Origin: Candidatus Nitrospira inopinata
GTDB lineage: Bacteria; Nitrospirota; Nitrospiria; Nitrospirales; Nitrospiraceae
Length of the DNA: 32,000 nucleotides
Direction: 5' to 3'
Assembly: GCF_001458695.1 (NCBI RefSeq)
Contig: NZ_LN885086.1
Span: 1,530,001 to 1,562,000 of the forward strand
Shown here: piece by piece, positions 2,868 through 32,000 of the stretch
Layout: the number at the start of each line of letters is the position of its first letter
Numbering within the stretch: the first letter of the stretch is position 1
Notes under the pieces: model-generated
Seen by the model: only the letters and a program-made list of their open reading frames with translations
Databases searched by the model: none
What the model was told of the DNA's origin: nothing
Program-made: the position numbers and the translations under genes

Positions 2868-2937
2868 CAATCGGCGCCATCGGGTTGTCGCATCGGCGGG
2901 CGTACGGAGTCGAGTGGGCGTAACCAGGGGAGTCCTT

Positions 2938-5795: not shown

Positions 5796-5830
5796 ATTAG
5801 GAGCGGCGCGGCGGCGCCGACGGATGACCA

Positions 5831-6820: not shown

Positions 6821-6866
6821 TCCGCCCTCGGCAAACCGTAACGTGCGAGGTGAAGAGGTGAGCTTC

Positions 6867-8714: not shown

Positions 8715-8716
8715 CG

Positions 8717-8744
8717 CTCCGTCCGCAAACGGGGGCGTACGGAG
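8717..8744 (+). other. intercistronic stem-loop immediately after the bd-like 2 stop codon
   Basis: ctccgtccgc / gcgtacggag forms 9 of 10 pairs around loop aaacgggg. It starts 3 nt after TGA 8712-8714 and has no U-tract. Confidence 0.4.
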
Positions 8745-8801
8745 GGAAGACTGTCGTCGTGAGAACGAGTCGTTCATGCCATTCGACGGGGAAGGGGCGT
8801 T

Positions 8802-9425
8802 ATGAGTGAACTTGCGCAGCTTCAGTTGATCGCGCTCGCGATCGTCCTCTTTGGAATCCTGATTCTTCTCTTCATCAAATCGAACTTCTTTCGAGTGACA
8901 GGGTTCGTCTCCATCGTGCTGGGGCTGTTTTCGCTGATGTCTCTCGCGGTGCCGCAGATGGCGTCTCTTCCCCCGGCTGATGAAACCATCGACATCGCCA
9001 GCATCAAGACGCCGACCGACATCGCGGCGCTGGGGCAAACGATTTTTTTCAGCAAGGGGCAATGCGCGCTGTGCCATTCCATCGGGCCCAGCGAGTCGGC
9101 CCGTTGTCCGGACTTAAAGGGGATCGGCGCCAAGTTGACCAAGGCGTTTCTGTATGAAAGTCTGACGGACCCTCAAGCCTTCATCTATCAAGATTACCGG
9201 CATGGAGGGGTGCCGAAAGAATATCCGGCGACGATGCCGAGCATCGACAAAGATCCGATCGGCTTATCGAAGAATGAAATCTTGGCCGTGATCGCGTTTC
9301 TTCAACAAATGAGCGGAGAGCCGATCTCCGTCAGTCCGTCGGAACTTGAAATACCGGGTCAGGGACCGCCCGCTTCGGTCGCCGTCGCAGGGTCCGCTCC
9401 GTTGGCCGTCGCGCAGGCGCAATAG
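8802..9425 (+). CDS. membrane-anchored monohaem cytochrome c (2 N-terminal TM helices)
   Basis: SD GGGGAAGGGG precedes the ATG. It has CALCH, and its cyt c domain is collinear with that of 2938-3747 (C..CH...GP.L..IG ... DP ... MP ... EI.A...(F/W)L). Confidence 0.85.
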   Translation: MSELAQLQLIALAIVLFGILILLFIKSNFFRVTGFVSIVLGLFSLMSLAVPQMASLPPADETIDIASIKTPTDIAALGQTIFFSKGQCALCHSIGPSESARCPDLKGIGAKLTKAFLYESLTDPQAFIYQDYRHGGVPKEYPATMPSIDKDPIGLSKNEILAVIAFLQQMSGEPISVSPSELEIPGQGPPASVAVAGSAPLAVAQAQ

Positions 9426-9440
9426 GCAGAGGGGGAAATC

Positions 9441-10160
9441 ATGGGGCATTCGTTGGTCAGGCCGATTATCATCATGGGAGTCATGTACGCGGTGCTCAAG
9501 TTTGTGCTGCCGAACATCCCGGGGTCCGCGGCGCTTCCATCCAGCCTCATTCTGCTGTATCTGCTGCTGACGTTGTCAGGGATCATCATTTTCGAAACCG
9601 TAAGCGCCGAGTCCAAGGACGCCTTCTGGGGGCCGATGCAGAAATTTTTGACAGGAGACAACATCGGCGGGTTGAAGCCGTTTCGATACGGGATTCTCAT
9701 TTTCTTTCCTCTTCTGGTCGGATGGCAGACGTACAATGCGACGGCTCCGAGCGGTCAGCCTCCCGCCGAAAGCCGAGTGATTCATCCCGCCCCGCCGGGC
9801 GAATACACCGGGCTGGCGAATCCGGTTCCCAGGACCCCGGAAAACATCATGCAAGGCAAAGGGTTCTATGCGGCGTTTTGCTCGCCTTGCCATGGCGCGA
9901 ATTTCGACGGGAAAGGGCCGGCGGCCCGGGGATACAATCCTCCGCCGGCCAATTTTGCCGACCCCACGACCATTGCGATGTTGCAGGAAAGCTATCTGTT
10001 CTGGCGCATCAAAAAGGGCGGGGTCGGGCTCCCGATCGAAGGAATGCCGTGGAAGTCGGCGATGCCGCGTTGGGAGCTTGAGTTGCCGGATGAATGGATC
10101 TGGAAAATCATCATGGGCGAATACGACGGTGCGCATCAGTCTCCGCGCACGTGGGAATAG
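9441..10160 (+). CDS. membrane-anchored monohaem cytochrome c (3 N-terminal TM helices)
   Basis: SD GAGGGGGA precedes the ATG. It has CSPCHGANFDGKG, and LFWRIKKG..GMPWKSAMP resembles WFWRIAEG..KMKGWKS of the 575-1084 protein. Confidence 0.85.
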   Translation: MGHSLVRPIIIMGVMYAVLKFVLPNIPGSAALPSSLILLYLLLTLSGIIIFETVSAESKDAFWGPMQKFLTGDNIGGLKPFRYGILIFFPLLVGWQTYNATAPSGQPPAESRVIHPAPPGEYTGLANPVPRTPENIMQGKGFYAAFCSPCHGANFDGKGPAARGYNPPPANFADPTTIAMLQESYLFWRIKKGGVGLPIEGMPWKSAMPRWELELPDEWIWKIIMGEYDGAHQSPRTWE

Positions 10161-10175
10161 CGAGAGGGGGAGCCG

Positions 10176-11045
10176 ATGTCGCCCGGATCGCCGTGGGGAA
10201 ACGAGGCCAGCATGAATCCCGTGAAGTTGACGGCTCAATGGAGCGCATATGTGAAGGGGGTCCTGATCGCGGCCCTGATCGTGGGGGGAGGGACGGACGG
10301 CTTGGCGCAGGAAAGCGTGGCGGTTCGCGCGTCCCTTGTCTCGGGCGCCTTGCCTGTCGATGATCCGAACGCAGCGGCTTGGAACAGCGCCGCGCCGGCC
10401 GTCTTTCCGATGTCGCCGCAAGTCCATTGGCCGGACCGCATTCAGGAAGTGACCGTGCAGGACCTGACCGTGCGCGCCTTGCACGACGGGACGCAAGTGG
10501 CGTTTCTCTTGGAATATGACGATCCCACGGAGGATCCTGACGACGCGGCGGCGATTGAATTCATGGTCGGAGATAAGAAAGCGCATTTTGCGCACGGTCA
10601 GCCGATGCTCTTGGTGGACGGCGGGCCCGTCAACATCTGGTTCTGGAAGCACAAAGACAATAAAGGCGTAGATATGTGGGCCAAGGGGTTCGGCACCCTC
10701 CGGCCGCACTCGCATCAAGACGTGACAGCCAAGGGCGAATACGCGAACGGGAAATGGAGAGTCGTGTTTTCCCGGTCGCTGGTGACCGAGCATCCGGATG
10801 AGGATATGCAGGTCACGCCCGGCGAGTTCATCAATATCGCCTTTGCGGTCTGGGATGGAAGAAAAGACGCCACGGGGCAGCTCATTGAAAAGGGATCGCA
10901 AAAAGCCGTGTCGTCATGGTGGTATTTTCGGGCGGAACCGCCTCCTGATTATTCCGGATACCTGTACGCGGGCGTGGCCGCCGTGTTGGCGTTGGGGTTT
11001 CAGTTCGTTCTGATCCGTAAACTCAAGGAAGGGCAGTCAGCATGA
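10176..11045 (+). CDS. EB_dh-domain haem-b protein (gamma subunit of type II DMSO-reductase-family enzymes, NxrC-like) with a C-terminal TM anchor
   Basis: It has a signal-like N-terminus. AAWNSAAP..MSPQ...VTVRALHDGTQVAFLLEYDDPTED..AAAIEF...NIWFWK...GKWRVVFSRSL...INIAFAVWDG matches my memory of the ethylbenzene-dehydrogenase gamma/NxrC fold family. The C-terminal helix is LYAGVAAVLALGFQFVLI. Confidence 0.75.
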   Translation: MSPGSPWGNEASMNPVKLTAQWSAYVKGVLIAALIVGGGTDGLAQESVAVRASLVSGALPVDDPNAAAWNSAAPAVFPMSPQVHWPDRIQEVTVQDLTVRALHDGTQVAFLLEYDDPTEDPDDAAAIEFMVGDKKAHFAHGQPMLLVDGGPVNIWFWKHKDNKGVDMWAKGFGTLRPHSHQDVTAKGEYANGKWRVVFSRSLVTEHPDEDMQVTPGEFINIAFAVWDGRKDATGQLIEKGSQKAVSSWWYFRAEPPPDYSGYLYAGVAAVLALGFQFVLIRKLKEGQSA

Positions 11046-12067
11046 GAAGGGCGAGGCTGCAAGCCGCAAAAACAGTGGTCGGCCTGTGCGGAGTGGTGGC
11101 GCTGCTTACGGGTGGGTGCGCGAGCGAGCAGGAAAAAAAGGGGCGCGAATTGTACACCCATTACTGCAGCGATTGTCACGGCGAAAGCGGCAGGCAGAAC
11201 GAAGGATTCAATTGGTCGGCCATGCCGGATCCCAAGCCCAAGGATCTTTCCAATAAAAGCGAGATGAGCACCTTCAAAGACGAGGAGCTGTTTGCCACGA
11301 TTTCACGCGATATGTTGGATACGAGCGAAGAGGGAGGCGATGAGATCGGGGACGACGATTTCGCCGTTCCGACGATGCCGACCTTCAAGTATACGTTGTC
11401 CGAAGAAGAAATCTGGGCGATCGTCGGCCATGTGCGCACGTTGCACGGGATGAAGCTGGAGTTCGACGTGGCGGCCCGCAAGCGATCTCTCGAAGAGGGC
11501 TTGAAAGCCGCACAGGCGAAATTCGAGCAAGCAAAACTGGCCTACGAGGAAGCAGAACGAAAAGCCAACGAAGAGGCGGAACGAAAGAGCCAGGAACTCA
11601 ATCAAGACGTCGACGTCGACGAGTCCGCTTACGCCGACGAGCTGGCTGCGATGACAGAGGCCAAGAAAGAGCTGGAGGCGGCTCAGGCAGCCCTGAACAA
11701 CTTCACGACGAGGCCTGGAAAGGGGCAGAGCGTTCCCAGGCCGGACCTCACGACGCCGCCGGCGGAAACTGCGCAATTGGTCGAGCGCGGAAAGCGGCTG
11801 TATGAAAACAAGTATGGATGTAACGGCTGTCATAGCCTTGCCGGTGAGGGGGGGAAAATCGGTCCTCCCTTGGACCGTGCAGGATTCAGGCTGAATCCCA
11901 CTTGGATCTATCGTTGGCTCAAGAATCCCCAGGCCATGGATTCGGCGACGCGAATGCCCGCATTGGGCCTGAGCGACGCGGATGCCAAAGCCGTGACGTT
12001 CTATTTGGAAACCTTGCAGGCGCCGAAGGCTGCGCCTCAAGAGGAAAGACCGGTCGAAACCCCGTGA
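11042..12067 (+). CDS. dihaem c-type cytochrome lipoprotein with a central Ala/Glu/Lys coiled-coil linker
   Basis: An ATGA overlap joins it to the upstream gene. Lipobox LLTGGC, two CxxCH motifs (CSDCH, CNGCH), and the linker KAAQAKFEQAKLAYEEAERKANEEAERK. Confidence 0.85.
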   Translation: MRRARLQAAKTVVGLCGVVALLTGGCASEQEKKGRELYTHYCSDCHGESGRQNEGFNWSAMPDPKPKDLSNKSEMSTFKDEELFATISRDMLDTSEEGGDEIGDDDFAVPTMPTFKYTLSEEEIWAIVGHVRTLHGMKLEFDVAARKRSLEEGLKAAQAKFEQAKLAYEEAERKANEEAERKSQELNQDVDVDESAYADELAAMTEAKKELEAAQAALNNFTTRPGKGQSVPRPDLTTPPAETAQLVERGKRLYENKYGCNGCHSLAGEGGKIGPPLDRAGFRLNPTWIYRWLKNPQAMDSATRMPALGLSDADAKAVTFYLETLQAPKAAPQEERPVETP

Positions 12068-13170: not shown

Positions 13171-15231
13171 TTGCTTGTGACTACAGGATATTTACACGTT
13201 CGTTCCTTTATCGCCGTTGTCATCCTCGCGGCCTTCGCGCTGTCGGCAGCCGGTTGCTGGTGGTCGAGAGAGAAACCAAAGGTATCGGATGGCGGAGCGG
13301 AAACCTCTGATAGTCAAGCGCCAGCCATTGCGCTGAAGCCGTCGCTCTGGCTTGCTCCAAGCATGACCGGTGCGTCGCTCTCTTACACCAACGCCTGCGG
13401 GGAACCGAGCATCGTCTCGATTTCGGGCGTACTGACGGAAATCGTTCCCGCGAAGCTTGGCCAGGCGTTTTCCGGTCTTTTGCTCCATGAAGGAGAAGGG
13501 CAGGCCGGAGGAGAGGATAGTTTTATCGAAATCGGTCTGGGATCGAAACGAGTGGATCTTGTTGTTCCCCGTCAGACGCCGGGGACATATCCGGCGCGTG
13601 TCACGCTTGGAGTCGAAGCAGCCTTGCTCGCCGAGGATGGCGCCCCGCTGTTCCATGCCAAGCTTCAAGGCGTGGGCCATGGCGAGGTGGAAGTGACCGG
13701 CCAGTCTTGTGAAGTCAAAGGGTTGGAGCCCATTGTTCGGCAGGCGGTTGAAACGGTGGGCGACAGTTTGTTCAAACAGGTGACCGGAGCCGATCGAATT
13801 CGCGAGTATGCTCAACAGAGAGCGGCGGCCCGATCAAAGGCTCCCGCCGCAAAGGCTCCCGACGCGGCGATCCCAGGAGTGCAGAGTCCTCACGCCGGGG
13901 CGGCAATGGGGGGAGGCGCGGTTTTCAACCAGCTTGCTCCACCTCCCGCCTTCCCGCATTCGACGGCCCTTGCCTTTCTTGCCATCCTGCGGGATGAAAG
14001 CCAAGATCACATGATTGAACCGGGCGAGCCGCTCACGATCGAAGTGGAAGTCAAAAACGAGGGAGAGGTGGAGGCCAGGAACGTGGAAGTCGTCGTGGGA
14101 GGGAACGGGCCATTGGCCGCGCATTTTCCGTCGACGATCCCGATCGGCGACGTGCGGCCCGGAGAAATCAAGTACGTTTCGGTGACTAAACCGATCACGG
14201 ACCTCAAGGGCGAGCCGCGCGGCGAGTTGATGTTGAGCGTCCGCAGCCTCACGCCGCTGGACCCGCCGCCGCATCCCAAGCAGTTCGCCCTCGTCGTCAA
14301 GACGGACAAAGGCGTCGAGGATACGGAGGCGCTCAAGATCGACCGTCCTCCGGCGCCTCTGAGCTTATCCAAACAGACAAAGGCGGTGGTCATTGCGATA
14401 GGGGTCGGCGCATTTCGGGACGAGCGCGTCCCCCACGTCAAGTACGCGGAGCGGGATGCCGAGGCGATGGCGACCTATCTGCGAACGATTGCGGCGATTC
14501 CAGACCATCGTGTTCGTCTATTGGTGGATCGCTATGCGCTGAAGCAAGATATCGAAGAGACGTTTGACGAGTGGCTCCCCAAGCAGGTGGATGCGGCGAC
14601 CGTCGTGTACATTTTTTTCGCGGGGCGCGCGCTGGTTGACGGTGCGACCGGGTCGGTTTCCCTCGTGCCGTTTGACGGGAACATCACGTCAACGCGGCGC
14701 TTGTATCCGGTCCGGCGCATGCAGGAAGTTCTGTCGCGTTTGCCGATGCAACGGGCGATCATGATGTTCGATGTGTCGTTGGACCCCTCGCCGGGCGCAA
14801 ACCCGGCGACGACCCCTCATGCCGATTGGGGAGAAGGGGCGGACGAGGAAAAAGATCACGTGATGTGGATGGTGGGCAACAGGGGTCTTCAGGAAGCCCA
14901 TGCTTATGAATCGGCGAAGCACGGGTTGTTTACGTATTCTCTGCTAAGGGGATTGCAGGGGTTGGCCGATATTGATCGGGACGGGACCGTTGCCGCCGGA
15001 GAACTGTGCACTTATGCCCGCAATGAGGTCATCCATGTGTCGAGAAAACAGTTCGGCAACCCGCAGCGTCCGCTCTGTTCCCCGCCGCCCGGACAGGGGG
15101 CCGTCGTGAGGATTCATCCGATGGCGAGGGGCAATAACCCGAAATCGTCCGATGCCGTGAAGAAGGCGGCGCCGGCAGAAGAGACTCCCGCGCCGACCAG
15201 TCCGCTGCTTGATGTGGGGCCAAAGCTGTAG
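13171..15231 (+). CDS. lipoprotein with a CARDB-like Ig domain and a caspase (peptidase C14)-like domain lacking both catalytic residues
   Basis: TTG 13171 or GTG 13177 start. Lipobox LSAAGC. The middle region LTIEVEVKNEGEVEARNVEVVVGG...GEIKYVSV is CARDB-like. In the C14-like block VVIAIGV..Y...YAERDAEAMATYL, the canonical (S/A)GHG is AGRA (Arg codon 14626-14628) and the D-x-C is DVS (Ser codon 14776-14778). Confidence 0.75.
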   Translation: MLVTTGYLHVRSFIAVVILAAFALSAAGCWWSREKPKVSDGGAETSDSQAPAIALKPSLWLAPSMTGASLSYTNACGEPSIVSISGVLTEIVPAKLGQAFSGLLLHEGEGQAGGEDSFIEIGLGSKRVDLVVPRQTPGTYPARVTLGVEAALLAEDGAPLFHAKLQGVGHGEVEVTGQSCEVKGLEPIVRQAVETVGDSLFKQVTGADRIREYAQQRAAARSKAPAAKAPDAAIPGVQSPHAGAAMGGGAVFNQLAPPPAFPHSTALAFLAILRDESQDHMIEPGEPLTIEVEVKNEGEVEARNVEVVVGGNGPLAAHFPSTIPIGDVRPGEIKYVSVTKPITDLKGEPRGELMLSVRSLTPLDPPPHPKQFALVVKTDKGVEDTEALKIDRPPAPLSLSKQTKAVVIAIGVGAFRDERVPHVKYAERDAEAMATYLRTIAAIPDHRVRLLVDRYALKQDIEETFDEWLPKQVDAATVVYIFFAGRALVDGATGSVSLVPFDGNITSTRRLYPVRRMQEVLSRLPMQRAIMMFDVSLDPSPGANPATTPHADWGEGADEEKDHVMWMVGNRGLQEAHAYESAKHGLFTYSLLRGLQGLADIDRDGTVAAGELCTYARNEVIHVSRKQFGNPQRPLCSPPPGQGAVVRIHPMARGNNPKSSDAVKKAAPAEETPAPTSPLLDVGPKL

Positions 15232-15308: not shown

Positions 15309-15384
15309 GCCGGCGTAGCTCAGTCGGTAGAGCAGCGGTTTCGTAAACCGCAGGTCGCCCGTTCAATCCGGGTCGCCGGCTCCA
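15309..15384 (+). tRNA. tRNA-Thr (anticodon CGU), CCA encoded
   Basis: The cloverleaf was folded by hand. Acceptor GCCGGCG/CGCCGGC, D arm GCTC-AGTCGGTA-GAGC, anticodon arm GCGGT-TTCGTAA-ACCGC, variable loop AGGTC, T arm GCCCG-TTCAATC-CGGGT, then T-CCA. Confidence 0.95.
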
Positions 15385-16359: not shown

Positions 16360-17037
16360 CTATTTGGTCTGCAGAAAGGCCAGCACCGCTTCCACTCGCC
16401 CGTTGACGGAAAGTTTCCGATAGATGTGATGCAGGTGCGTTTTGACCGTATCAAGCGACACGCACAATTGGTCGGCGATTTCCTTGTTGGTGCGGCCCAT
16501 GGCTGCGCAGGCCAAGATTTCACGTTCCCGTTCGGTCAGGCCGGACAACGAGGCCGTTTCATGGGGATGGGTCTGCTCGACCGCCGCCAACGCGCGCCGT
16601 GCGAAATGATCCGGGGTAAACGGCGAGAGCAGATGTTCCCCCCGGTGGGCGGCGCGAATGCAGCGCAAGAGGTCATCAGAGTCCGCGTCCTTGAGGATAT
16701 AGCCGAACGCGCCGGCTTGCACGGCTTCGACGATGCGCGCGTCGTCGTCATCGGCCGACAGCACCAACACCCTGGTGTCGGGCACGCACCCGTGAATCAA
16801 TTTGGTGGCCGTGACCCCGTCGCGGCTCGGCGTGTCCAGGTCGATCAGCGCGAGGTCGGGTTTGTGGGCCATGGCCAGATTCAGCGCCTCGCGTCCGTCA
16901 GCCGCCTCGGCGACGACACGGATATCTCGTTCCCTTTCCAGGAGCGCGCGCAGACTTCGTCTTATCAGGCGGTATCGTTCGGCCAGCAGCAGCCGAATCG
17001 ACACCGCCCGCTCTTTTTTGGAGGGCTCTCGGATCAT
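16360..17037 (-). CDS. NarL/LuxR-family response regulator (REC + LuxR HTH), orphan
   Basis: The REC domain has the phospho-acceptor context LALIDLDTP, LVLSAD and GYILKD. The HTH reads LTEREREILACAAMGRTNKEIADQLCVSLDTVKTHLHHIYRKL. The usual N-terminal acidic pair DD reads AE (LLLAERYRLIR). Start is ATG 17037 (or TTG 17040). No histidine kinase is in the window. Confidence 0.9.
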   Translation of the reverse strand: MIREPSKKERAVSIRLLLAERYRLIRRSLRALLERERDIRVVAEAADGREALNLAMAHKPDLALIDLDTPSRDGVTATKLIHGCVPDTRVLVLSADDDDARIVEAVQAGAFGYILKDADSDDLLRCIRAAHRGEHLLSPFTPDHFARRALAAVEQTHPHETASLSGLTEREREILACAAMGRTNKEIADQLCVSLDTVKTHLHHIYRKLSVNGRVEAVLAFLQTK

Positions 17038-17055
17038 CAAGCGCTCATCACGGAC

Positions 17056-17271: not shown

Positions 17272-18225
17272 TCATGACGCCATGCGGTAGACCCACCGAG
17301 AGGCGTCGTGTTGCGCCTTGGCGAGTTCCTTTTCTTCTCTGCTTCGAGCCGCCCAGGACAGGCCGACTGCGAAGATCGCCGCCAGGATGCAGGCGGCGGC
17401 GACGAGATAGACGAACGGAACGTCGAGCCAGGCGGTCGATCGCTCGGATGCAACCGAGGCCGTGGCCGGAACCGCCACGACGGCCGTGATTGGAACGGCA
17501 CGATCGGCCACAGCTTGCGCGCGGGCGGCCGCGAAGACGAGGCTTCCCATCTTTTCTTGCTGCATGGCTCGGACCTGCTCGGCTTCCAGTTGAGCCAGCG
17601 CCAACTGAACCAGCGCCGCGCCCAGCCGTTCCTGAATCGCTTCGGCCTGCTTGCGATGGGCCCGGATGGCCTCAACGATGCGGTTTCCCAGTGTCACTTG
17701 CCACGTGGAAAAGAATTGGTGATTCATCATGTCTCTCCGAGCCTCGACGAGACCAATCATCTTGCTGTTGAAGGTTGAATGGAGCTGATCCGCCGACACA
17801 AGGCCGGCTCGCACGCCTCGGCCGGTGAAATTGACGATTGCGCGCCCCATCACTTCTTGGATTCGCCCCATGTGCTGGGCGGGGATTGTTGCCGCGTCGT
17901 GGATGACGGCTCCGAGTGGCCCGCCGGGCCTCGACACAAACTCCTCGTAGGCGAGCGTGGCTCGGTTCCATTCGGCTGCGGCCAGGGAAATGGCTCGGTT
18001 GACTCTACGCTCGAAGAGCGTCTGTTCGACGACGGCCTGCCCTATCGCCGGCTGGAGCCAGACCATCCCGGAATTCAAGCCTACGGATTGCTCAAAAGGA
18101 GAAGGTTGCGGAAGAGTCATCTGATATGTACCGCCGGCTGCGGCAAAGAACAACAACGCCCCGAACAGAATCGCGCACATACCGACGCCGACGGCGACGT
18201 CGATGGTGTTGTAACGGTAAGACAT
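17272..18225 (-). CDS. hypothetical membrane protein with N- and C-terminal TM helices flanking a ~230-aa helical domain
   Basis: I chose internal ATG 18225 because it follows AAGGAGG (track ORF starts at 18255). TM1 is VAVGVGMCAILFGALLFFAAA and the C-terminal TM is VPFVYLVAAACILAAIFAVGL. I recognise no family. Confidence 0.7.
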   Translation of the reverse strand: MSYRYNTIDVAVGVGMCAILFGALLFFAAAGGTYQMTLPQPSPFEQSVGLNSGMVWLQPAIGQAVVEQTLFERRVNRAISLAAAEWNRATLAYEEFVSRPGGPLGAVIHDAATIPAQHMGRIQEVMGRAIVNFTGRGVRAGLVSADQLHSTFNSKMIGLVEARRDMMNHQFFSTWQVTLGNRIVEAIRAHRKQAEAIQERLGAALVQLALAQLEAEQVRAMQQEKMGSLVFAAARAQAVADRAVPITAVVAVPATASVASERSTAWLDVPFVYLVAAACILAAIFAVGLSWAARSREEKELAKAQHDASRWVYRMAS

Positions 18226-18585
18226 AGAGACCTCCTTGCCACCGGCAACGATCACTCGTGTGGCTGCGAGTTGCTCGGACGATCAATCGAGGAGTCCGTT
18301 AAAGGCGCCTCTTTTCGATTGTCAGTGGAAGAAAGAGAAAAGAAGACGGAGAGGAAGTTGCACCTGCCACGTCCGTCCTGTTCGATCCCTGCGTCACGGA
18401 GGATCATGGCGACCACCCCCCTGAAAATAGACGGGCGGCACAGGTTCACTCTACGCCCCCTGGTCATGGCGGTCAAGGGGGGCGAATGCCTGGATTGTCG
18501 CTGGGAGAAAGAATCGAGAGTTGGTTGCTTGTGAGGGCTTATCTTATGAGGGGCAGGAGACGGCCCTCTCAACCCAAGAGATCTC

Positions 18586-21257: not shown

Positions 21258-21317
21258 CTCTTGGGTGACATGACGGCTCCTGCCCAGTCCGTGAAGGCTG
21301 GGCGGAAAGGAGTGGTC

Positions 21318-22166
21318 ATGATGCCCGTAAGTGTCTCCCCTCGCGCAAAAACGGTTGAAGGCGCGAGATCCATTTCGATTGTTCAGGCATTCGTTCTTCT
21401 TATCGTTGTGTTTGATGGGCAACAGGCACTCGCCGTCCGACCGTTTGTCACGGATGACGCCCGCATCACCTATCCGGGCCAGCTTGAGACCGAATCATGG
21501 ATTGAACTAGGAACTGCCCGTGGGCAAAAGCCGGAGTGGGGTCTCCATGTCTTGACGGGCACCACGGTCAGCGATCGGCTGGAGATCATCGCGGGTTGGA
21601 CTGGGGTCTCGTACCAGGATCGTCGGATTCATCTCGACGATCTCGTCGTGCAGCCCAAGTACCTGCTCTACCGGTCTTTCGGTGCGATCCCTTCCGTGTC
21701 GGCCGCCGTGGGGGTTCTCGCGCCGATCAGTGGCAATCGGCAGCTCTGGAACAGTTACGCGATGGTCCATGTGAGCTGGTTCTTAGACATGCCGGAAGGC
21801 AGCACCGATCCCTATGACAATGGGTTGGCGATCCATATCAACCTGGGGACCAAGTCTCAATATCACGCCGGACTGAGCGGCCGTTATACGACGAAACCCT
21901 ATTGGGGCGTAGGGTTCGAGGTGAAAACGCCGATCTCCAGGGACTTTCGCTTTCTCGGCGAAGTCTTCAACGCGGATCCATTTCATTTCGAGGGGGAATT
22001 TCCCGCGTTTCAGACCGGTTTCCGTTGGTACAAAAGCCCCAATGTGCAATGGGACGTTGTCTATGGCGGGTTTCGAAGTCCGCCTGGGGAGGAGGACCGC
22101 CCATGGAATCACACATTCCAAATCGGTTTGCGTGTGCTGTTCGACGATGTGTTTCCGTTCCGATGA
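21318..22166 (+). CDS. putative outer-membrane beta-barrel protein (MetA-pathway/transporter-like family)
   Basis: ATG 21318 follows AAAGGAG (track ORF starts at TTG 21261). The signal peptide ends ..GQQALA. The mature N-terminus VRPFVTDDARITYPGQLETESW and the alternating hydrophobic pattern are typical of small barrels. Confidence 0.6.
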   Translation: MMPVSVSPRAKTVEGARSISIVQAFVLLIVVFDGQQALAVRPFVTDDARITYPGQLETESWIELGTARGQKPEWGLHVLTGTTVSDRLEIIAGWTGVSYQDRRIHLDDLVVQPKYLLYRSFGAIPSVSAAVGVLAPISGNRQLWNSYAMVHVSWFLDMPEGSTDPYDNGLAIHINLGTKSQYHAGLSGRYTTKPYWGVGFEVKTPISRDFRFLGEVFNADPFHFEGEFPAFQTGFRWYKSPNVQWDVVYGGFRSPPGEEDRPWNHTFQIGLRVLFDDVFPFR

Positions 22167-25491: not shown

Positions 25492-26427
25492 GTGAACGGC
25501 CTCAACCGAGATGGAGAATCCGTTAATACCGCGGCGAGAAAAAAGGCCGCGCAGCCCGCTAGTGCGAGGCCTTCGTTGCTGGTGGTTCCCCGTCCCCTCA
25601 TCAGAGAATTGATGCGCCTCTATGAGTATCCTCATCCGTCCAAGCCGGGCGCCGTCATTCGAGGATACGACCGGGCCCACGCGATTCGCACGGCGATGAT
25701 GTGCGCGGTGGTGGCCGAACGGCTGGGTCATCCGGCGGATCGGCTCGTTGATTATCAAGTCGCCTGTCTGTTGCACGACGTGAGCCGAGCCGGACTCGAC
25801 CGACGGCTTTTCGGCAAGATCTGGTCATGGGCCAAGGCCCATGGCATTCCCACGAGACCTCGTGAGTGGCGCGCGAAGTATCCCGCCACTCCCTATGGGC
25901 GAGAAACGGAAGCCTTTGTCGCTCGTTATGGAAAGGAGTTAGAGGCGGCCGGCGTCCCCCTGACTGCCTGGGCCAAGGAGCAAATCGAGATTCGGCTGGG
26001 GCACGCTCGCCGTCTCCGGAGACGCCTGGCGGTCGTCAAACCGGCCCTGCGTCACTTGGGAATCAGGTGGGTGCCGTGGATGCAGGAGGTGATGCTCTAC
26101 TACTACTATCCAGAGAAGTTGTCGTGTGCGAAACCCTGGGTCAAACAATTGGCGGAGATTTTGGTGGCCTGCGAACAACTCGAAGCCTACAGCAACCGAC
26201 AGCGCGGCCGGGATTATTACGCGCGGAAGCAGGAGTCGTTTCCCGAGGCCTTTGCCTACCTGAATCGGCTTCAAACGGAGGGGCTAATCAGCCGACCGGT
26301 CATGGCGGCCCTGCGTGAGCTCGTCGCGGAGGGCAAGTTTGACAGGATTTTGGAACAGGCGCGAGGAAGCTCGCTCACTGAGCAGGAGCGGCGATACCTT
26401 CGCGGGCTGGCGCAGGAGAGACGGTGA
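25492..26427 (+). CDS. HD-domain protein (metal-dependent phosphohydrolase superfamily), function unknown
   Basis: H...HD pattern: RAHAIRTAMMCAVVAERLG ... VACLLHDVSRAG. The start is uncertain: GTG 25492 has no clear SD, and an internal Met lies at ELMRLYEY. Confidence 0.55.
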   Translation: MNGLNRDGESVNTAARKKAAQPASARPSLLVVPRPLIRELMRLYEYPHPSKPGAVIRGYDRAHAIRTAMMCAVVAERLGHPADRLVDYQVACLLHDVSRAGLDRRLFGKIWSWAKAHGIPTRPREWRAKYPATPYGRETEAFVARYGKELEAAGVPLTAWAKEQIEIRLGHARRLRRRLAVVKPALRHLGIRWVPWMQEVMLYYYYPEKLSCAKPWVKQLAEILVACEQLEAYSNRQRGRDYYARKQESFPEAFAYLNRLQTEGLISRPVMAALRELVAEGKFDRILEQARGSSLTEQERRYLRGLAQERR

Positions 26428-26849
26428 TGAGGGTAAAGACCGTTCCACTCCGCCTTGAGATGGCCGGTGAGACGCACATCGAAAATATCACGAAACGGGT
26501 ATCGTCCGCCGTGGAAGAGTCCGGCATGTCCGCCGGCATCGTGACCGTGTTCGTCAAACACACGACCGCCTCGGTCATGATCATCGAGGATGAGCCGGGC
26601 ATTCGCGCCGACACGAAAGCTTTCTGGGATCGGGTCGTGCCTTCCGATCCAGCGTGGCAACATAATCGCAGAAACCCTGGAGAAGACAATGCCCACAGTC
26701 ATCTGCGGGGGCAATTGCAGGGACCGTCGGTGACGATTCCCTTTGCCGACGGCGTTCTCCTCTTGGGGACATGGCAACAGATCGTCGTGGTGGATTTTGA
26801 CACGAGGCCTCGGCGTCGCGAATTGGTTCTGCAACTCATGGGTGAATGA
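26427..26849 (+). CDS. YjbQ/UPF0047 family protein (secondary thiamine-phosphate synthase-like)
   Basis: ATG 26427 overlaps the upstream stop (TGATG); the track ORF starts at GTG 26424. KHTTASVMIIEDEPG, NAHSHLRGQL and LLLGTWQQIVVVDFDTRPRRR are collinear with E. coli YjbQ as I remember it. Confidence 0.85.
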   Translation: MRVKTVPLRLEMAGETHIENITKRVSSAVEESGMSAGIVTVFVKHTTASVMIIEDEPGIRADTKAFWDRVVPSDPAWQHNRRNPGEDNAHSHLRGQLQGPSVTIPFADGVLLLGTWQQIVVVDFDTRPRRRELVLQLMGE

Positions 26850-27979
26850 CGATGAAACAACTCGTGGCGGTCTTGGTTGGTCTGGGGATTGTGGGCGGTC
26901 TTGTGTTGATGGTTTCAATGAACGGGGTGGCGGAGTGGGGCAAACCGATGGGCGCCACCTATGATGGACCGGAAGGGAAGCCTCGTCCCATTACTCCACC
27001 CCCTGCTGAACTGAGCCCGGATGAGCGGGCGACGATCGCCGTCTTCGAACGGGCGTCAAAGTCGGTCGTGTTCATCGCCAATACGGCGATCCAGCGGGAC
27101 TTCTGGTCGCTCGATACCTTCGAAGTGCCGCAGGGGGCTGGATCGGGATTCATTTGGAACAAACAGGGCCACATCGTCACCAATTTTCACGTCATCTATG
27201 GCGCCAACGCTATCAAGGTCACCTTAGCCGATCGCAACGAATATCAGGCCAGGGTGGTCGGCGTGGATCCGGATCATGACCTGGCGGTGTTGCAGATTCA
27301 GGCGCCGGACGGTTCATTGGAGCCGCTGGCGATCGGAACGTCGAATGACCTGCGGGTCGGACAAAAAGTCCTGGCCATCGGCAATCCTTTCGGGCTCGAC
27401 CACACCTTGACGACCGGGGTGGTGAGCGCCTTGGGGCGAACGATCAAGTCGATGACGAATCGGACCATCGAGGGAGTCATTCAGACCGACGCGGCGATCA
27501 ATCCGGGCAATTCCGGCGGGCCACTGCTCGACAGTGCTGGCAGGCTGATTGGCGTGAACACGCAAATCATCAGCCCCAGCGGCGCCTATGCGGGTATCGG
27601 CTTTGCCGTGCCGGTCGATACGGTCAATCGCATCGTGCCTGAGCTCATCAAACACGGCAAGCGGATCAGGCCGGGATTGGGCGTCTCGCTCGTGCCGGAC
27701 TCCATGGCGAGGCGGTGGGGGATCAAGGGGCTGATCATCGGCAAGGTGGCGCGAGGCGGAAGCGCCGATCGAGCCGGCTTGCGCGGGGTGCGTGAAGCGG
27801 CCGGTGGGCGGATCGAACTGGGAGATATCCTCGTCGCGGTCGAAGGAACGCCGGTTGAGACCGTCGATGATTTGCTGGACGTCTTGGAAAAGTTTAAGGT
27901 CGGCGATCGGATCAAGGTTGACGTGATTCGAAACAATAAACGAACGTCCGTGGACGTGACGCTGCAAGCGGTCAATTAG
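26846..27979 (+). CDS. htrA: HtrA/DegP-family serine protease (trypsin-like domain + PDZ)
   Basis: An ATGA overlap joins it to yjbQ-like. N-terminal TM anchor, catalytic triad contexts HIVTNFHVI, DLAVLQI and GNSGGPLLD, then a C-terminal PDZ (GLIIGKVARGGSADRAGLR..GDILVAVEG). Confidence 0.95.
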   Translation: MTMKQLVAVLVGLGIVGGLVLMVSMNGVAEWGKPMGATYDGPEGKPRPITPPPAELSPDERATIAVFERASKSVVFIANTAIQRDFWSLDTFEVPQGAGSGFIWNKQGHIVTNFHVIYGANAIKVTLADRNEYQARVVGVDPDHDLAVLQIQAPDGSLEPLAIGTSNDLRVGQKVLAIGNPFGLDHTLTTGVVSALGRTIKSMTNRTIEGVIQTDAAINPGNSGGPLLDSAGRLIGVNTQIISPSGAYAGIGFAVPVDTVNRIVPELIKHGKRIRPGLGVSLVPDSMARRWGIKGLIIGKVARGGSADRAGLRGVREAAGGRIELGDILVAVEGTPVETVDDLLDVLEKFKVGDRIKVDVIRNNKRTSVDVTLQAVN

Positions 27980-28067
27980 AGAGAAGAACGATTCCGTCGA
28001 GCGGCGACCGTCCGGCGGAGAGGCCGACGGCGATGCGCGTGGGCGTTCCACCGCGAGAGGCAAAGGG

Positions 28068-29831
28068 GTGCTGTCCATGAGTGATCATCGACCAGTTGAA
28101 ACCGGAGGCGGAAAGTCCGGCGAAGAATCGGATCGCGAACAGGCCAAACGGACCGCTCAGACCGGCATCGATCCGTTGGAATTGATCGAGCAATGTCTGG
28201 CCTCCTTCGCGGAGGACGATCCCCGGCAGAAGCTCCTCTATAAGCTGCGTCACGCGGTCATGCTGACGATCGCTTCCAATCAGCAGCGAGACGTAGAATT
28301 GAAAAAAACCAACGAAGCGGTCGCCAAACTGACCGCTCCGGCGAATCGCGTCGGTCTGTTGCTGGACGTGCCGGAGCAAGGGCTCGCGCGCATCCTGGTC
28401 GGCGGCGCCGAATACTATGCGAACGTCGATCCCCGCGTGCCGACCGACGACCTGAGGGTCGGCGCGCAGATCCTTGTCAATGAGGCGTACGCGGTCATCA
28501 AGACGCTGGGTTACGACCGGAGCGGACCCGTGCTCAAACTGGCGGAGGCGATGGCCGACGGCCGCCTTCGGTTCGAGCAGGAACCGGGGCGGCAGCCGAT
28601 CATCGTTCAACGGTCCGCAGACTTGGCCGGAGCGTCGTTCCAGGCCGGCGACGAGATTCGGCTCGATCCGTCGTATCGCGTCGCCATTGAGAAACTCTCT
28701 GACCGGAAGACCGGCGCCCATGTTCTACGCGAACTGCCGACGGTGACGTGGGACCAGATCGGCGGACAACGGGAGGCCATCGGCGCCATCAGAAAAGCGA
28801 TCGAGTATCCGCTCCTGCACGGCGACCTGTATCGGCAATTCCGATTCGCCCGGCCCAAGGGGTTTCTTCTCTACGGCCCTCCCGGCTGCGGCAAAACGCT
28901 GATCGGACAGGCGACGGCCGGCAGCCTCTCCAAGTTGGCAAGCCGGCCTTTTGGAGACCGGTCGGCCGACGGGAGCGGGCGCCCTCCGATCACGGGAGGA
29001 GTCTTTCTCCACGTGAAGGGACCGGAGATCCTGAACATGTGGTTGGGCGAATCGGAACGGATGGTCCGCGATTTGTTCGCGCAGGCGCGGACAAGAAGGA
29101 AGGAAGGGTCGTTGCCGTTCATTTTTATAGACGAGGCCGAGTCCGTTTTGGGAACGAGGCGGGCGAGCAGATCGTTCAATATTTCAAGCACCCTCGTGCC
29201 GATGTTTTGCAGCGAGATGGACGGGATTGAGCCGCTGGAAGACGTCGTCCTGATCCTGGCGTCCAACCGGCCTGACCTTATCGATCCCGCCATCTTGCGT
29301 CCAGGTCGCATCGATCGGAAGATCAAGGTCGGCCGTCCGGACCGGGATGCCGCGGCCGAGATCCTCGGGATTTATCTGGCGGAGGACCTTCCTCTTGATC
29401 CGAACGTTGTTGCCACCTATGGCGGCGAGAAAGCCAACGCTCGGATCTCGATGATTGAACGGGTCCTTGACGCGATGTTCCGGAAGACGGCCGAGAACCG
29501 GCTCCTGTCCGTTCGGTTACGCAACGGCCGACAAACCGTACTGTATCGCGGCGATCTCGTCAGCGGCGCCATCCTTGCGTCGATCGTCCAGCGAGCGAAG
29601 GAACGGGCGATTGATCGGGCCGTCGAGTCTGGAGCGCCGCCCGGCTTGTTGATGGAAGACTTGCTTGAATCGGTCGAGGAAGAGTTTCGAACCGGAGAAG
29701 TCCTGCCACCTGACGATGCGGCGGAGGAGTGGCTTAAACTGTTGGACCACGATCCGGATCAGGTCGTCGGGATTTCATCGTTTCGTCGGGGCCGACAGTC
29801 CGAGGAGCAGATCGTTCCCCAGATCATCTAG
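28068..29831 (+). CDS. arc: proteasome-associated AAA ATPase (ARC/Mpa homologue)
   Basis: It is collinear with Mtb Mpa from memory: Walker A GPPGCGKTLIG, KGPEILN, Walker B FIFIDEAES, SNRPDLIDPAILRPGRIDRKIKVGRPD. An N-terminal coiled coil and an OB-like region precede these. An alternative start is ATG 28077. Confidence 0.9.
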   Translation: MLSMSDHRPVETGGGKSGEESDREQAKRTAQTGIDPLELIEQCLASFAEDDPRQKLLYKLRHAVMLTIASNQQRDVELKKTNEAVAKLTAPANRVGLLLDVPEQGLARILVGGAEYYANVDPRVPTDDLRVGAQILVNEAYAVIKTLGYDRSGPVLKLAEAMADGRLRFEQEPGRQPIIVQRSADLAGASFQAGDEIRLDPSYRVAIEKLSDRKTGAHVLRELPTVTWDQIGGQREAIGAIRKAIEYPLLHGDLYRQFRFARPKGFLLYGPPGCGKTLIGQATAGSLSKLASRPFGDRSADGSGRPPITGGVFLHVKGPEILNMWLGESERMVRDLFAQARTRRKEGSLPFIFIDEAESVLGTRRASRSFNISSTLVPMFCSEMDGIEPLEDVVLILASNRPDLIDPAILRPGRIDRKIKVGRPDRDAAAEILGIYLAEDLPLDPNVVATYGGEKANARISMIERVLDAMFRKTAENRLLSVRLRNGRQTVLYRGDLVSGAILASIVQRAKERAIDRAVESGAPPGLLMEDLLESVEEEFRTGEVLPPDDAAEEWLKLLDHDPDQVVGISSFRRGRQSEEQIVPQII

Positions 29832-29860
29832 AGCGAGCGGGAGCCACGGACCGGAGCATC

Positions 29861-29880
29861 ATGGTGACGGATGGTGACGG
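29861..29880. repeat. perfect tandem duplication atggtgacgg x2 in the ARC-Dop spacer
   Basis: Copies lie at 29861-29870 and 29871-29880. Confidence 0.9.
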
Positions 29881-29924
29881 GGTAATGGAAAGGCGCAGCG
29901 TCGGAGAAAATCGTCGGTGAGCGG

Positions 29925-31451
29925 ATGAGGCTGTTCGGCGTCGAAACGGAATACGGCATCACGAGGGACGACGTTTCCGAAGTCGATCCGGTCGTGGAAT
30001 CGATGGAGCTGGTCCGCGCTCACCTCACGGCCTCCTTCGAGCGGCGATGGGATTACGCCGGTGAAGATCCCCACGAAGACGCGCGGGGCTTTCGCGTGCG
30101 GGAGTTGGCGCAAGATAGGGAAGAGGACGAGTTTTCACGGCGCGACGCCCGGCGGCCGTTCTCGTTTCACGAGATGAAAAGCGATCTGGTCTTGCCGAAC
30201 GGCGCGCGGTTCTACAACGACCATACCCATCCGGAATATTCGACGCCTGAGTGCCGCACGCTCAAAGATCTGCTGGCCCATGACCGGGCCGGCGAACTGA
30301 TCGCGCAGCGGGCGGCGGATCGCCGCAACCGGACGTTGGGCGGAAGCCACGTGCAGTTGTACAAAAACAACACGGACTTTCACGGACACAGTTACGGTTG
30401 CCATGACAACTATCTCGTACCCCGATCCATTCCCTTCGCCGGATTGGCGTCCGGGCTGCTTCCGTTTCTGGTGAGCCGTCAAGTGATCGCCGGCGCGGGA
30501 AAAGTCGGCGTCGAATCGCAGGAGGAAGGATGGGCGCCGGGGCCCTACCAGCTTTCTCAACGGGCGGACTTCATGGAAACGGAGTTGAGCGTCGATACCA
30601 TGCACAACCGACCGATTCTAAACACGCGCGATGAGCCGCACGCCGATCCGAGCAAATATCGCCGCCTGCATCTCATCATCGGCGACGCCAATCTGTGCGA
30701 ATACGCAACGGCGCTGAAGGTCGGCACCACCGCGCTCGTTCTGGAATTGATCGAGCGGGAGGGAGCGCCTTCTCTTGAGTTGGATCATCCGGTGGAGGCC
30801 GTCAAACGCCTGTCGCGCGACAGCGAGCTCAAGGCGACAGTTCGGCTGCGAAACGGCAAGGCCGTGACCGCCCTGGAGATTCAAGAGCAGTACCGGCGCG
30901 CCGCCGAGCGAACGTTGGGCGGCCGCGACGCCGAGACGGACTGGATCCTCAAGGAATGGGGTGAGACGCTCCGGTGGCTGGCCGAAGATCGCCGCCGCCT
31001 CGTCGGGAAATTGGACTGGGTCACGAAACTCTGGTTGCTGGAGACCTTCATGGAGGAAGAACGAATCGAGTGGAATGATCCTTGGCTCGCGAGCTTGGAC
31101 CTGGAATATCACAATATCAATCCCGAGCGCGGCCTCTATCTGGGATTGGAAGCGGAGGGCAGAGTCTGGAGAATGACGACCGACGCCGATGTCGAACGGG
31201 CTTTGTCGGCCGGTCCTCCCGACACCCGAGGAGGAGTGAGGGGGCTGTGCGTCAAACGGTTTGCTTCGTCGATCAAGGCCGTGCAGTGGGAGAGGATTCG
31301 ATTTGCCGAGGGAGCGGACCCCGGCGTGTTGGAAATGGGCGATCTTTTCGAGCCATCCGCCGTGGCGCGTTGCATGGCCCTGTTTCAAGCGGCGACGTCT
31401 CCTCTCGACGCGCTGAAGGAGTGGAATGGCGGGCAGGAGGGACGATCATGA
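29925..31451 (+). CDS. dop: Pup deamidase/depupylase (Dop-type member of the PafA/Dop family)
   Basis: It has MRLFGVETEYG and a long Dop-type insert containing RRWDYAGEDPHEDARGFRV (compare Mtb Dop RWDYE..SPLRDARGFDL). NGARFYNDHTHPEYSTPE is Dop-like (DHAHPEYS), not PafA-like (DVGSHPEYAT). Confidence 0.9.
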   Translation: MRLFGVETEYGITRDDVSEVDPVVESMELVRAHLTASFERRWDYAGEDPHEDARGFRVRELAQDREEDEFSRRDARRPFSFHEMKSDLVLPNGARFYNDHTHPEYSTPECRTLKDLLAHDRAGELIAQRAADRRNRTLGGSHVQLYKNNTDFHGHSYGCHDNYLVPRSIPFAGLASGLLPFLVSRQVIAGAGKVGVESQEEGWAPGPYQLSQRADFMETELSVDTMHNRPILNTRDEPHADPSKYRRLHLIIGDANLCEYATALKVGTTALVLELIEREGAPSLELDHPVEAVKRLSRDSELKATVRLRNGKAVTALEIQEQYRRAAERTLGGRDAETDWILKEWGETLRWLAEDRRRLVGKLDWVTKLWLLETFMEEERIEWNDPWLASLDLEYHNINPERGLYLGLEAEGRVWRMTTDADVERALSAGPPDTRGGVRGLCVKRFASSIKAVQWERIRFAEGADPGVLEMGDLFEPSAVARCMALFQAATSPLDALKEWNGGQEGRS

Positions 31452-31639
31452 GAGTCACGATGGCGCCGGAGCGGCGAGAAGGGCCGGTCGATCCGTTTCC
31501 GAAACCGCCGTCTCCTTCTCCGGAACAGGGACCAAGAAGGCCGGACGTTGGGTCGCCGGACAAGGACAATCTGCTGAAGCGGATGAGAAAAGTCGATCCG
31601 AAACAGGCCGAACGGTATCGCCAACGAACGGGGGAGTAG
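31448..31639 (+). CDS. pup: prokaryotic ubiquitin-like tag (Pup family, 'UBact'-like), C-terminal ...RYRQRTGE
   Basis: An ATGA overlap joins it to the dop stop; an alternative start is ATG 31460. The 60-64-aa Pro-rich basic peptide ends in Gly-Glu and sits between dop and prcB, as pup does in actinobacteria. In the track it is buried in the 3' end of ORF 31082-31639. Confidence 0.8.
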   Translation: MRVTMAPERREGPVDPFPKPPSPSPEQGPRRPDVGSPDKDNLLKRMRKVDPKQAERYRQRTGE

Positions 31640-31689
31640 GTCTCATTCGTCGCCTGCCGGTCGAAAAAGGAGCCTTCTCCTCCGGCGGG

Positions 31690-32000
31690 ATGACAACCGA
31701 AGGGAACGATCAGGAAATGCTGAGCGATTTCTACCAACTGCTCAAGGAACGGGGGTATCGGTTGTGCGCGCCGGTCTCCGACGGCCGGGCCGCCGATATT
31801 CCGAAAGCGACCACGATCGTGGCGTTCAAGTATCGGGACGGCGTCTTGGTGGCGGGCGACCGCCGCGCGACGGCCGGCAACGTGGTGATGTACGACCGAA
31901 CGGACAAGGTGTTGGAGCTGGACCGGTCCTGTGTCATGGCGATCGCGGGCGTGCCGGCCACCGCCTACGAGATGGCCCGTATTCTGGAACATTCCTTCAA
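31690..32000 (+). CDS. prcB: 20S proteasome beta subunit, 5' part (runs off the right edge)
   Basis: An open frame runs from ATG 31690 to the window end. It is not in the track because it has no stop. A propeptide is followed by the catalytic-Thr context KA/TTIVAFKYRDGVLVAGDRRATAGN, close to Mtb PrcB [21 protein letters not shown]. Confidence 0.9.
   Translation, partial: MTTEGNDQEMLSDFYQLLKERGYRLCAPVSDGRAADIPKATTIVAFKYRDGVLVAGDRRATAGNVVMYDRTDKVLELDRSCVMAIAGVPATAYEMARILEHSF

Follow-up and report, generated by a model that had tools for sequence, protein, structure and literature searches.

The last part of a 32,000-nucleotide (nt) stretch of the genome of Candidatus Nitrospira inopinata (contig NZ_LN885086.1, positions 1,530,001 to 1,562,000; the whole stretch is referred to below as the window, its first letter being position 1) contains the 5′ two-thirds of a UBact-proteasome operon, and the system encoded there very probably works like the Pup-proteasome system. 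Four consecutive genes on the + strand occupy positions 28077–32000 and encode an ARC/Mpa-type ATPase, a Dop-type enzyme, the small UBact tag and the start of PrcB. The genes can be identified and the set is complete, the catalytic motifs are intact, the operon is rigidly conserved and the tag protein is under strong selection; conjugation, tag removal, recognition by ARC and degradation are predicted from homology. The locus is an already known, intact and ordinary UBact-proteasome cluster, which agrees with the other members of its class in all testable defining features: Pfam, NCBIfam, the GenBank annotation and the literature (2008, 2017) already cover both the gene cluster and the tag family, including the presence of the latter in Nitrospira. 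It is a functional analogue of the Pup-proteasome system and probably its homologue.

An initial annotation, made from the letters of the sequence, had described a Pup-proteasome-type tagging cluster outside Actinobacteria with an order matching mycobacterial mpa-dop-pup-prcB. This description was borne out, as Pfam finds proteasomal ATPase OB domains with an AAA domain, Pup_ligase and Proteasome, and the four genes follow one another in that order on the + strand. Relatives were collected by scanning one genome per species; a relative was found in 376 genomes, and the best 80 of these all belong to Nitrospira, Nitrospiraceae or Nitrospirota, including N. moscoviensis and Ca. N. defluvii. The window could be extended via the identical contig CZJZ01000007.1 (assembly GCA_001458755.1), which overlaps its last part by 12,076 nt at 100 % identity. 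Beyond the window end, this contig carries the rest of PrcB (264 amino acids (aa) in full), PrcA (267 aa) and a second Pup-ligase-family gene (503 aa), and the pafA and prcA genes that the annotation had expected just past the window are thus both present. Of 81 Nitrospira-type loci, 60 are complete and have the order ARC-Dop-UBact-PrcB-PrcA-PafA; contig ends cut most of the remainder, and a few have split or duplicated matches. A scan of positions 26300–32000 found no sigma-70-like promoter, and the 7 terminator-like sites detected there are not above chance (shuffled expectation 4.1 ± 2.5).

The tag gene (31448..31639, + strand) encodes a 63-aa protein (MRVTMAPERREGPVDPFPKPPSPSPEQGPRRPDVGSPDKDNLLKRMRKVDPKQAERYRQRTGE), which is the form chosen by the gene callers on the public contig. 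Its ATG shares bases with the stop codon of dop (ATGA), and a GGAGG Shine-Dalgarno-like sequence, read directly, is located at 31436..31440 (+ strand), inside the end of dop and 7 nt 5′ of the ATG. An ATG at the position aligned with 31448 is found in 78 of 80 Nitrospira genomes. The alternative start, ATG 31460, would yield a protein of 59 aa with 14 Lys and Arg, 10 Asp and Glu, 12 Pro, an isoelectric point (pI) of ~10 and the C-terminus RTGE; the charge count and the sequence quoted in the initial annotation for this form are both exact. Pro accounts for 19 % of the tag (59–63 aa). In the last 27 codons, compared across the 80 genomes, the variable sites at codon positions 1, 2 and 3 number 8, 5 and 27, and the codon differences from the window, which served as the reference, comprise 988 synonymous and 93 non-synonymous changes. 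As far as sequence can show, the tag open reading frame (ORF) is a real gene under strong selection on its protein sequence. The annotation had allowed that the small ORF might not be translated; the codon-position variation, the conserved ATG and the Shine-Dalgarno-like site argue against this.

The tag belongs to the UBact family. It matches the Pfam UBact model PF20513 with an expectation value (E) of 1.7e-20 (73 bits, cut-off 27.8) and the NCBIfam UBact equivalog NF033388 with 76.4 bits (cut-off 35), and the named proteins among 400 tag homologues are ‘ubiquitin-like protein UBact’ of Nitrospira. The name UBact, which the annotation had given, therefore stands, and the publication to which it was attributed exists (Lehmann and colleagues, 2017). 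The tag carries the family C-terminus VDPKQAERYRQRTGE and the family positive charge, and its own C-terminus, KRMRKVDPKQAERYRQRTGE, fits the family block M[RK]KVDP.Q..[RK]YRQR[TS]G[EQ], in which the last residue is E or Q. Among 34 aligned Nitrospira tags, R45-M46, V49-D50-P51-K52-Q53-A54 and R56 through G62 are invariant, with E or Q as the last residue, while in the 80 Nitrospira genomes the tags end in RTGE (68) or RTGQ (12) and their last 27 residues have a net charge of +3 to +5. Compared with the Nitrospira consensus, the window tag contains Phe17 instead of Met, and its Glu/Gly stretch is 1–2 residues shorter.

The wider family was surveyed by searching 1.84 billion representative proteins with a profile; this yielded 162 clusters, the counts being taken from the 150 listed representatives. 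The R[TS]G[EQ] ending is present in 118 of the 150, each of which has a net charge of +2 to +8 across the last 30 residues, and the remaining 32 are mostly visibly truncated or run-on gene calls. Gln is the final residue in 78 representatives vs Glu in 48, and none of the 150 has an acidic C-terminal region or a GG[EQ] ending. Since the basic charge and the single Gly occur in every intact listed member, they are family traits, and the locus is ordinary for its kind. The basic tag with a single Gly in RTGE, singled out in the initial annotation, was therefore observed as stated but cannot be regarded as something notable, as these traits are the family consensus. The long proteins P0349 and P0367, with 5 and 7 matched stretches, respectively, were considered as poly-UBact proteins and rejected, because the stretches proved to be GPKQPE and TPR-type repeats without relation to UBact. 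Forms linking UBact with Pup were also considered and discarded, as there are only 162 clusters and every listed R[TS]G[EQ] sequence is basic in its C-terminal region.

The enzymes encoded on either side of the tag are those of a Pup-type pathway. The Dop-type enzyme (29925..31451, + strand) is a 508-aa member of the Pup-ligase family (PF03136, E 1.2e-167), with the motifs GVETEYG (residues 5–11), RRWDY containing the conserved Trp of the roughly 40-residue Dop-loop (40–44), NDHTHPEYSTPE (98–109) and NTRDEPHAD (233–241); its catalytic motifs include DHTHPEY. It scores 470 bits against TIGR03688 (Dop; cut-off 492) vs 377 against the PafA model (TIGR03686), both being below the cut-offs. Among solved structures it is closest to Acidothermus Dop (4B0R/5LRT, E 5e-111), to which it aligns through the Dop-loop including RRWDY. 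The PafA-like paralogue (503 aa, Pup_ligase family), located just past the window end at positions 13358–14869 of the contig stretch, has no Dop-loop; the distance from the N-terminal motif to the catalytic Asp motif is 57 residues in this protein and 87 in the Dop-type enzyme. The locus thus encodes one Pup-ligase paralogue with a Dop-loop and one without, and the presence or absence of this loop has been described as one of two features that distinguish Dop from PafA (PMC7947786). The N-terminal 103 residues of PrcB (31690..32000, + strand, starting with ATG; from translation) are followed by the window end, which cuts the gene; the full 264-aa protein matches PF00227, scores 168 bits against TIGR03690 and consists of a 40-residue propeptide followed by a mature part with Thr1 (TTIVA, from nt 31810), Asp17 and Lys33.

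The ARC/Mpa-type proteasomal AAA+ ATPase (MSDHR..., 584 aa; 28077..29831, + strand) matches Pfam PF17758, PF16450 and PF00004. Its mechanical ORF begins with GTG 28068 (587 aa), and the conserved start, also called on the public contig, is ATG 28077. The protein has the features by which Mpa/ARC ATPases are recognized, namely an N-terminal helical region, a double OB domain, an AAA domain with an Ar-Hb-Gly pore loop and a beta-grasp C-terminal domain. An acidic helix, DPLELIEQCL (residues 32–41), precedes a basic coil segment ending in KLTAP (84–88) and two OB domains, and the AAA domain contains Walker A GPPGCGKT (267–274), the pore loop W-L-G (322–324) and Walker B FIFIDE (348–353). Against TIGR03689 it scores 429 bits, below the cut-off of 504.75, and its best solved relatives are the M. 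tuberculosis Mpa structures 5KWA and 7PX9 (E ~1e-95), the alignment spanning residues 72–579, C-terminal domain included.

Taken together with the established Pup pathway, this gene content suggests how the system would operate. The side-chain carboxylate of the C-terminal Glu of the tag would be ATP-activated on the PafA-like ligase, which is predicted to have a glutamine-synthetase fold, and joined to target lysines, with the terminal Gly-Glu as the putative site of conjugation. The Dop-type paralogue would take the tag off proteins again, and the Gln-ending tags of relatives would first be deamidated to Glu by the Dop-type enzyme; since the window tag ends in Glu, it would require no deamidation step. 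The N-terminal helices of the ARC hexamer would then bind the C-terminal helical part of the tag, and the ARC pore loops would thread its disordered N-terminal part, the substrate being unfolded and fed into the PrcAB 20S core. The alternation of Glu and Gln at the last residue is likewise known for Pup. In the AlphaFold2 model, the tag has no fold (predicted template modelling score (pTM) 0.24): residues 1–36 lack secondary structure, and helices are predicted at residues 37–48 and 51–61.

The residues at the very N-terminus of the tag (1–5) vary freely among the 34 aligned sequences, positions 31448–31480 of the window encoding residues 1–11. From PERREGP.DP.PK on, the Pro-rich and predicted-unstructured part of the tag is well conserved, R9, R10, P13, P16 and P18 being invariant in the same 34 sequences. 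We would not have expected this degree of conservation in a mere threading segment.

Likeness to actinobacterial Pup-proteasome systems is extensive. The proteins at the Nitrospira locus belong to the same families and are encoded in the same order as M. tuberculosis mpa, dop, pup, prcB, prcA and pafA; the solved Mpa, Dop and PafA structures are their best structural relatives, and both tags are small, have no predicted fold, form a C-terminal helix-break-helix and end in Gly-Glu or Gly-Gln. The six genes are contiguous in Nitrospira, whereas in the two actinobacterial loci examined unrelated genes separate mpa from dop and prcA from pafA. In addition, pafBC-like WYL genes follow pafA in these two loci, and no WYL gene follows here. 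The proteins differ too: in the window ARC, a conserved acidic helix leads into a basic coil segment of reduced length, and the ligase paralogue carries far more negative charge. The tag itself is Pro-rich and basic (pI ~10 vs 4.05 computed for M. tuberculosis Pup) and has one Gly where Pup has two, which agrees with the contrast drawn in the initial annotation with acidic actinobacterial Pup ending in GGQ or GGE.

A different comparison is offered by PupE systems, such as that of Corynebacterium glutamicum (Pup, PDB 4BJR), in which the tag is likewise encoded with a terminal Glu and is ready for ligation. In the established Pup pathway, a Dop-type enzyme is needed for such a tag only in its removal and not for deamidation. 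Corynebacterium is not known to have a 20S proteasome, whereas one is encoded at the locus studied here. Moreover, Nitrospira has both forms of the tag (RTGE and RTGQ), and Gln is the commoner ending across the listed UBact family. PupE constructs have been described (PMC8599861). With respect to the UBact systems of other Nitrospira, including the close relatives N. moscoviensis and Ca. N. defluvii, whose tags are named UBact, the locus is alike in everything tested, i.e. the family models, the C-terminus, the charge and the context of ARC, two Pup-ligase paralogues, PrcB and PrcA. There is no difference of substance; the Phe17, the shorter Glu/Gly stretch and the ARC tail VPQII in place of [VI]NQII distinguish the window locus.

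Several observations weigh against the view that this locus works like a Pup-proteasome system. No experiments that address the conjugation or removal of UBact, its binding to ARC or the degradation of tagged proteins were found in the open literature, and no PDB chain matches the UBact profile at E<=10, in agreement with the statement of the initial annotation that there is little or no UBact biochemistry. When the tag was aligned to family models, as the initial annotation had proposed, the UBact models matched as described above, but the Pfam Pup model PF05639 gave no match at E<=10, although M. tuberculosis Pup scored 79.7 bits in the same search; nor is there a Pup-family model such as TIGR03687 among the NCBIfam matches of the tag at E<=0.01. 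The profile-profile comparison by hhalign, in which a 34-sequence UBact alignment was set against a 30-sequence Pup alignment, gave a probability of 1 % and an E of 0.05, which is not significant; since both profiles are narrow (effective number of sequences (Neff) ~1.6 each), this result neither proves nor disproves homology. Every enzyme and proteasome component falls below the NCBIfam equivalog cut-offs, which were trained on actinobacteria, and PrcA is the most diverged of them (60.6 bits vs a cut-off of 139).

The divergence extends to the parts of the enzymes that are expected to handle the tag. The PafA-like paralogue scores 332 bits against the PafA model and 325 against the Dop model, both far below the cut-offs, and it contains a conserved IVNDFFEWVQxNR in place of the alpha-loop IWEGVSSATTRSR of actinobacterial PafA, preceded by an extra ~10–12 residues. 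The helix signature of the PafA alpha-loop has been given as W-E-G-x-S-S-A-x-x-R-S (PMC7947786). Due to the near-equal PafA and Dop scores and the different alpha-loop, the role of this paralogue as the ligase is predicted from its position and from the absence of the Dop-loop. Its mean net charge is −22.6 (n=64), as compared with −4 and −6 for two actinobacterial PafAs. The published rim residues of PafA (R32, R38, R137, R207, R218, R442 and K444; PMC10465538) could not be transferred to the Nitrospira ligase, because their numbering did not match the actinobacterial references, and this comparison was dropped.

ARC differs from its mycobacterial counterpart at both ends. Its N-terminal region is conserved within Nitrospira and differs from that of Mpa, for which the sequence identical to PDB 3M9B was used. 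The conserved helix DPLELIEQCLxxFxE (window positions 28170–28214, residues 32–46) has a net charge of −2 to −5, mostly −4, and no counterpart in M. tuberculosis Mpa aligns with it. The 42-residue segment that follows, ending in KLTAP, has a net charge of +2 to +5, Mpa residues 46–96 having a net charge of +1. An acidic ARC coil compensating for a basic tag was thus considered and rejected: only the short preceding helix is acidic, while the coil segment has the same sign as the tag helix (+4), so that simple charge complementarity between tag and coil is absent. Speculatively, the acidic helix could be where the basic helix of UBact docks. At the other end, the window ARC terminates in VPQII (last five sense codons at 29817–29831) and not in the GQYL of Mpa, and 73 Nitrospira ARCs end in [VI]xxII or xxxVI, mostly [VI]NQII. 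The GQYL motif is needed by Mpa to open the 20S gate (PMC8142254). Together with the divergence of PrcA, the different tail suggests that the docking tail of ARC and its pocket have changed together. GQYL is also used by PafE for opening of the 20S gate.

How far the tag itself departs from Pup can be judged from the sole hhalign alignment, which is gapless and not statistically significant, and which pairs UBact 27–57 with Pup 24–54. In this alignment, Pup L39, L40, I43, V46, A51, E52 and F54 correspond to UBact L, L, M, V, A, E and Y, while Pup D41, E42, D44, D45, E49 and D53 are replaced by K, R, R, K, K and R. The aromatic position is followed by 6 residues in UBact and by 10 in Pup. The UBact segment matching the acidic helix of Pup (residues 21–51), which associates with the coiled coil of Mpa, has a net charge of +4, and the tag ends in Thr-Gly-Glu, not in the Gly-Gly-Gln/Glu of Pup. 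When bound to Dop or PafA, Pup likewise adopts two helices (PMC8599861). The alignment weakly suggests that the hydrophobic positions and the two-helix layout of Pup have been kept and that six acidic positions have been inverted. The initial annotation had held that recognition by the ARC coiled coil and by the ligase must differ from that of Pup, and it is plausible that it does, with the electrostatics and some contacts having changed together. The disordered N-terminal part, the C-terminal helix-break-helix, the retained hydrophobic positions and the terminal G[EQ] nevertheless point to the same overall mode of recognition as in Pup, with altered electrostatics.

Another account would be that UBact is a divergent Pup whose recognition, and the surfaces involved in it, are unchanged, its separate name reflecting sequence drift once the whole system had been transferred horizontally and not a functional difference; this we regard as somewhat unlikely. 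UBact shares with Pup its location between dop and prcB, its size, its predicted unstructured state and its G[EQ] end, and the gapless alignment retains the hydrophobic positions of Pup. Furthermore, Nitrospirae tags were counted among the Pup orthologues, with a looser G[EQ] signature in common, which the window tag fits (Iyer et al. 2008; PMC2588565), and the phylogeny of Dop and PafA has been read as indicating horizontal transfer of the Nitrospirae system from Actinobacteria (PMC7947786). On the other hand, neither the Pfam Pup model nor the profile-profile comparison links the two tags, six acidic Pup positions are Lys or Arg in UBact, the stretch past the conserved aromatic position has lost 4 residues relative to Pup, and neither an acidic C-terminal region nor a GG[EQ] ending occurs among the 150 listed representatives. 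The partners have changed as well, namely the charge and alpha-loop of the PafA-like protein, the N-terminal region of ARC and its QII end.

The same differences may be taken further, to the view that recognition of UBact differs in kind from that of Pup and represents a second, independent solution on the same enzyme scaffold, which we consider unlikely. According to this proposal, the acidic helix of ARC may receive the amphipathic and basic helix of UBact, the coil itself being basic. The groove of the ligase, ~17 charge units more negative than that of the two actinobacterial PafAs and with a different alpha-loop, appears rebuilt, and ARC would dock on the strongly diverged PrcA via its QII tail instead of GQYL. 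The Pro-rich N-terminal motif PERREGP.DP.PK, which is conserved, may serve a separate function.

We consider it very unlikely that the small protein acts on ARC or the proteasome without covalent attachment, as a regulator or adaptor, or that it is a basic binder of nucleic acids or other ligands that is merely co-transcribed with the operon. The open literature yielded no report of conjugates. The pI of ~10 and the Pro-rich disordered N-terminal part would also suit an adaptor or a polyanion binder; the N-terminal motif PERREGP.DP.PK is conserved, and the threading segment of Pup is not known to have such a requirement. However, the R[TS]G[EQ] end is retained in 118 of the 150 listed representatives, with most of the other 32 being truncated or run-on gene calls, and the alternation of Glu and Gln at the last residue is what would be predicted for a tag activated at its terminal Glu with optional deamidation. 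The locus also always keeps its two Pup-ligase paralogues, with and without the Dop-loop, which would have no obvious role without a tag. Finally, the idea that the gene is an untranslated chance ORF in the dop-prcB spacer, prompted by its mere 63 codons in GC-rich DNA where spurious ORFs abound and by the many overlapping ORFs of the region, can be given practically no credence in view of the 8/5/27 distribution of variable codon positions, the excess of synonymous differences (988 vs 93 in 80 genomes), the conserved ATG with its Shine-Dalgarno-like sequence and ATGA overlap, and the matches to curated family models, which exceed the cut-offs.

Judging by the open literature and the PDB, UBact is a tagging system known only from sequence, and it is found in organisms that are key nitrifiers in wastewater treatment and soils. 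Demonstration of UBact conjugates, of their targets and of the reading of a basic tag by ARC would extend the Pup paradigm and would also bear on the question of inheritance vs horizontal transfer of bacterial proteasome tagging. The window gives no lever on these questions beyond that of any other Nitrospira genome, and it carries little weight as a discovery.

Directly 5′ of ARC and on the same strand (25492–27979), the window contains genes for an HD-like protein (25492/25612–26427, weak PF01966 match), YjbQ/UPF0047 (26424–26849) and an HtrA-like protease with Trypsin_2 and PDZ domains (26846–27979). In the Nitrospira loci with enough upstream sequence, the position upstream of ARC is kept by the HD-like gene in 62 of 63, by YjbQ in 63 of 63 and by HtrA in 56 of 63. 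The adjacency of these genes to the proteasome operon may reflect a functional link, or it may be genus-level synteny only.

Elsewhere in the window, a respiratory gene cluster extends over positions 1143–12067 of the + strand. It encodes two cytochrome bd-like subunit I paralogues (1143–2867 and 6759–8714), which match only the first ~240 of 418 profile positions, a Rieske protein (3744–4682), cytochrome b (4683–5795), an ethylbenzene-dehydrogenase-family (EB_dh) haem protein (10176–11045) and four c-type cytochromes. Such a set of cytochrome bd-like, c-type, Rieske-cytochrome b and EB_dh proteins is typical of Nitrospira. No Pfam match at E<=1e-4 was obtained for the ORFs at 5831–6820 (+, 329 aa), 13171–15231 (+, 686 aa), 17272–18255 (−, 327 aa) and 21261–22166 (+, 301 aa), the last of which is overlapped by a 282-aa gene called on the public contig. 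The window also encodes a tRNA-Thr(CGT) (15309–15384, + strand) and a LuxR-type response regulator with Response_reg and GerE domains (16360–17040, − strand).

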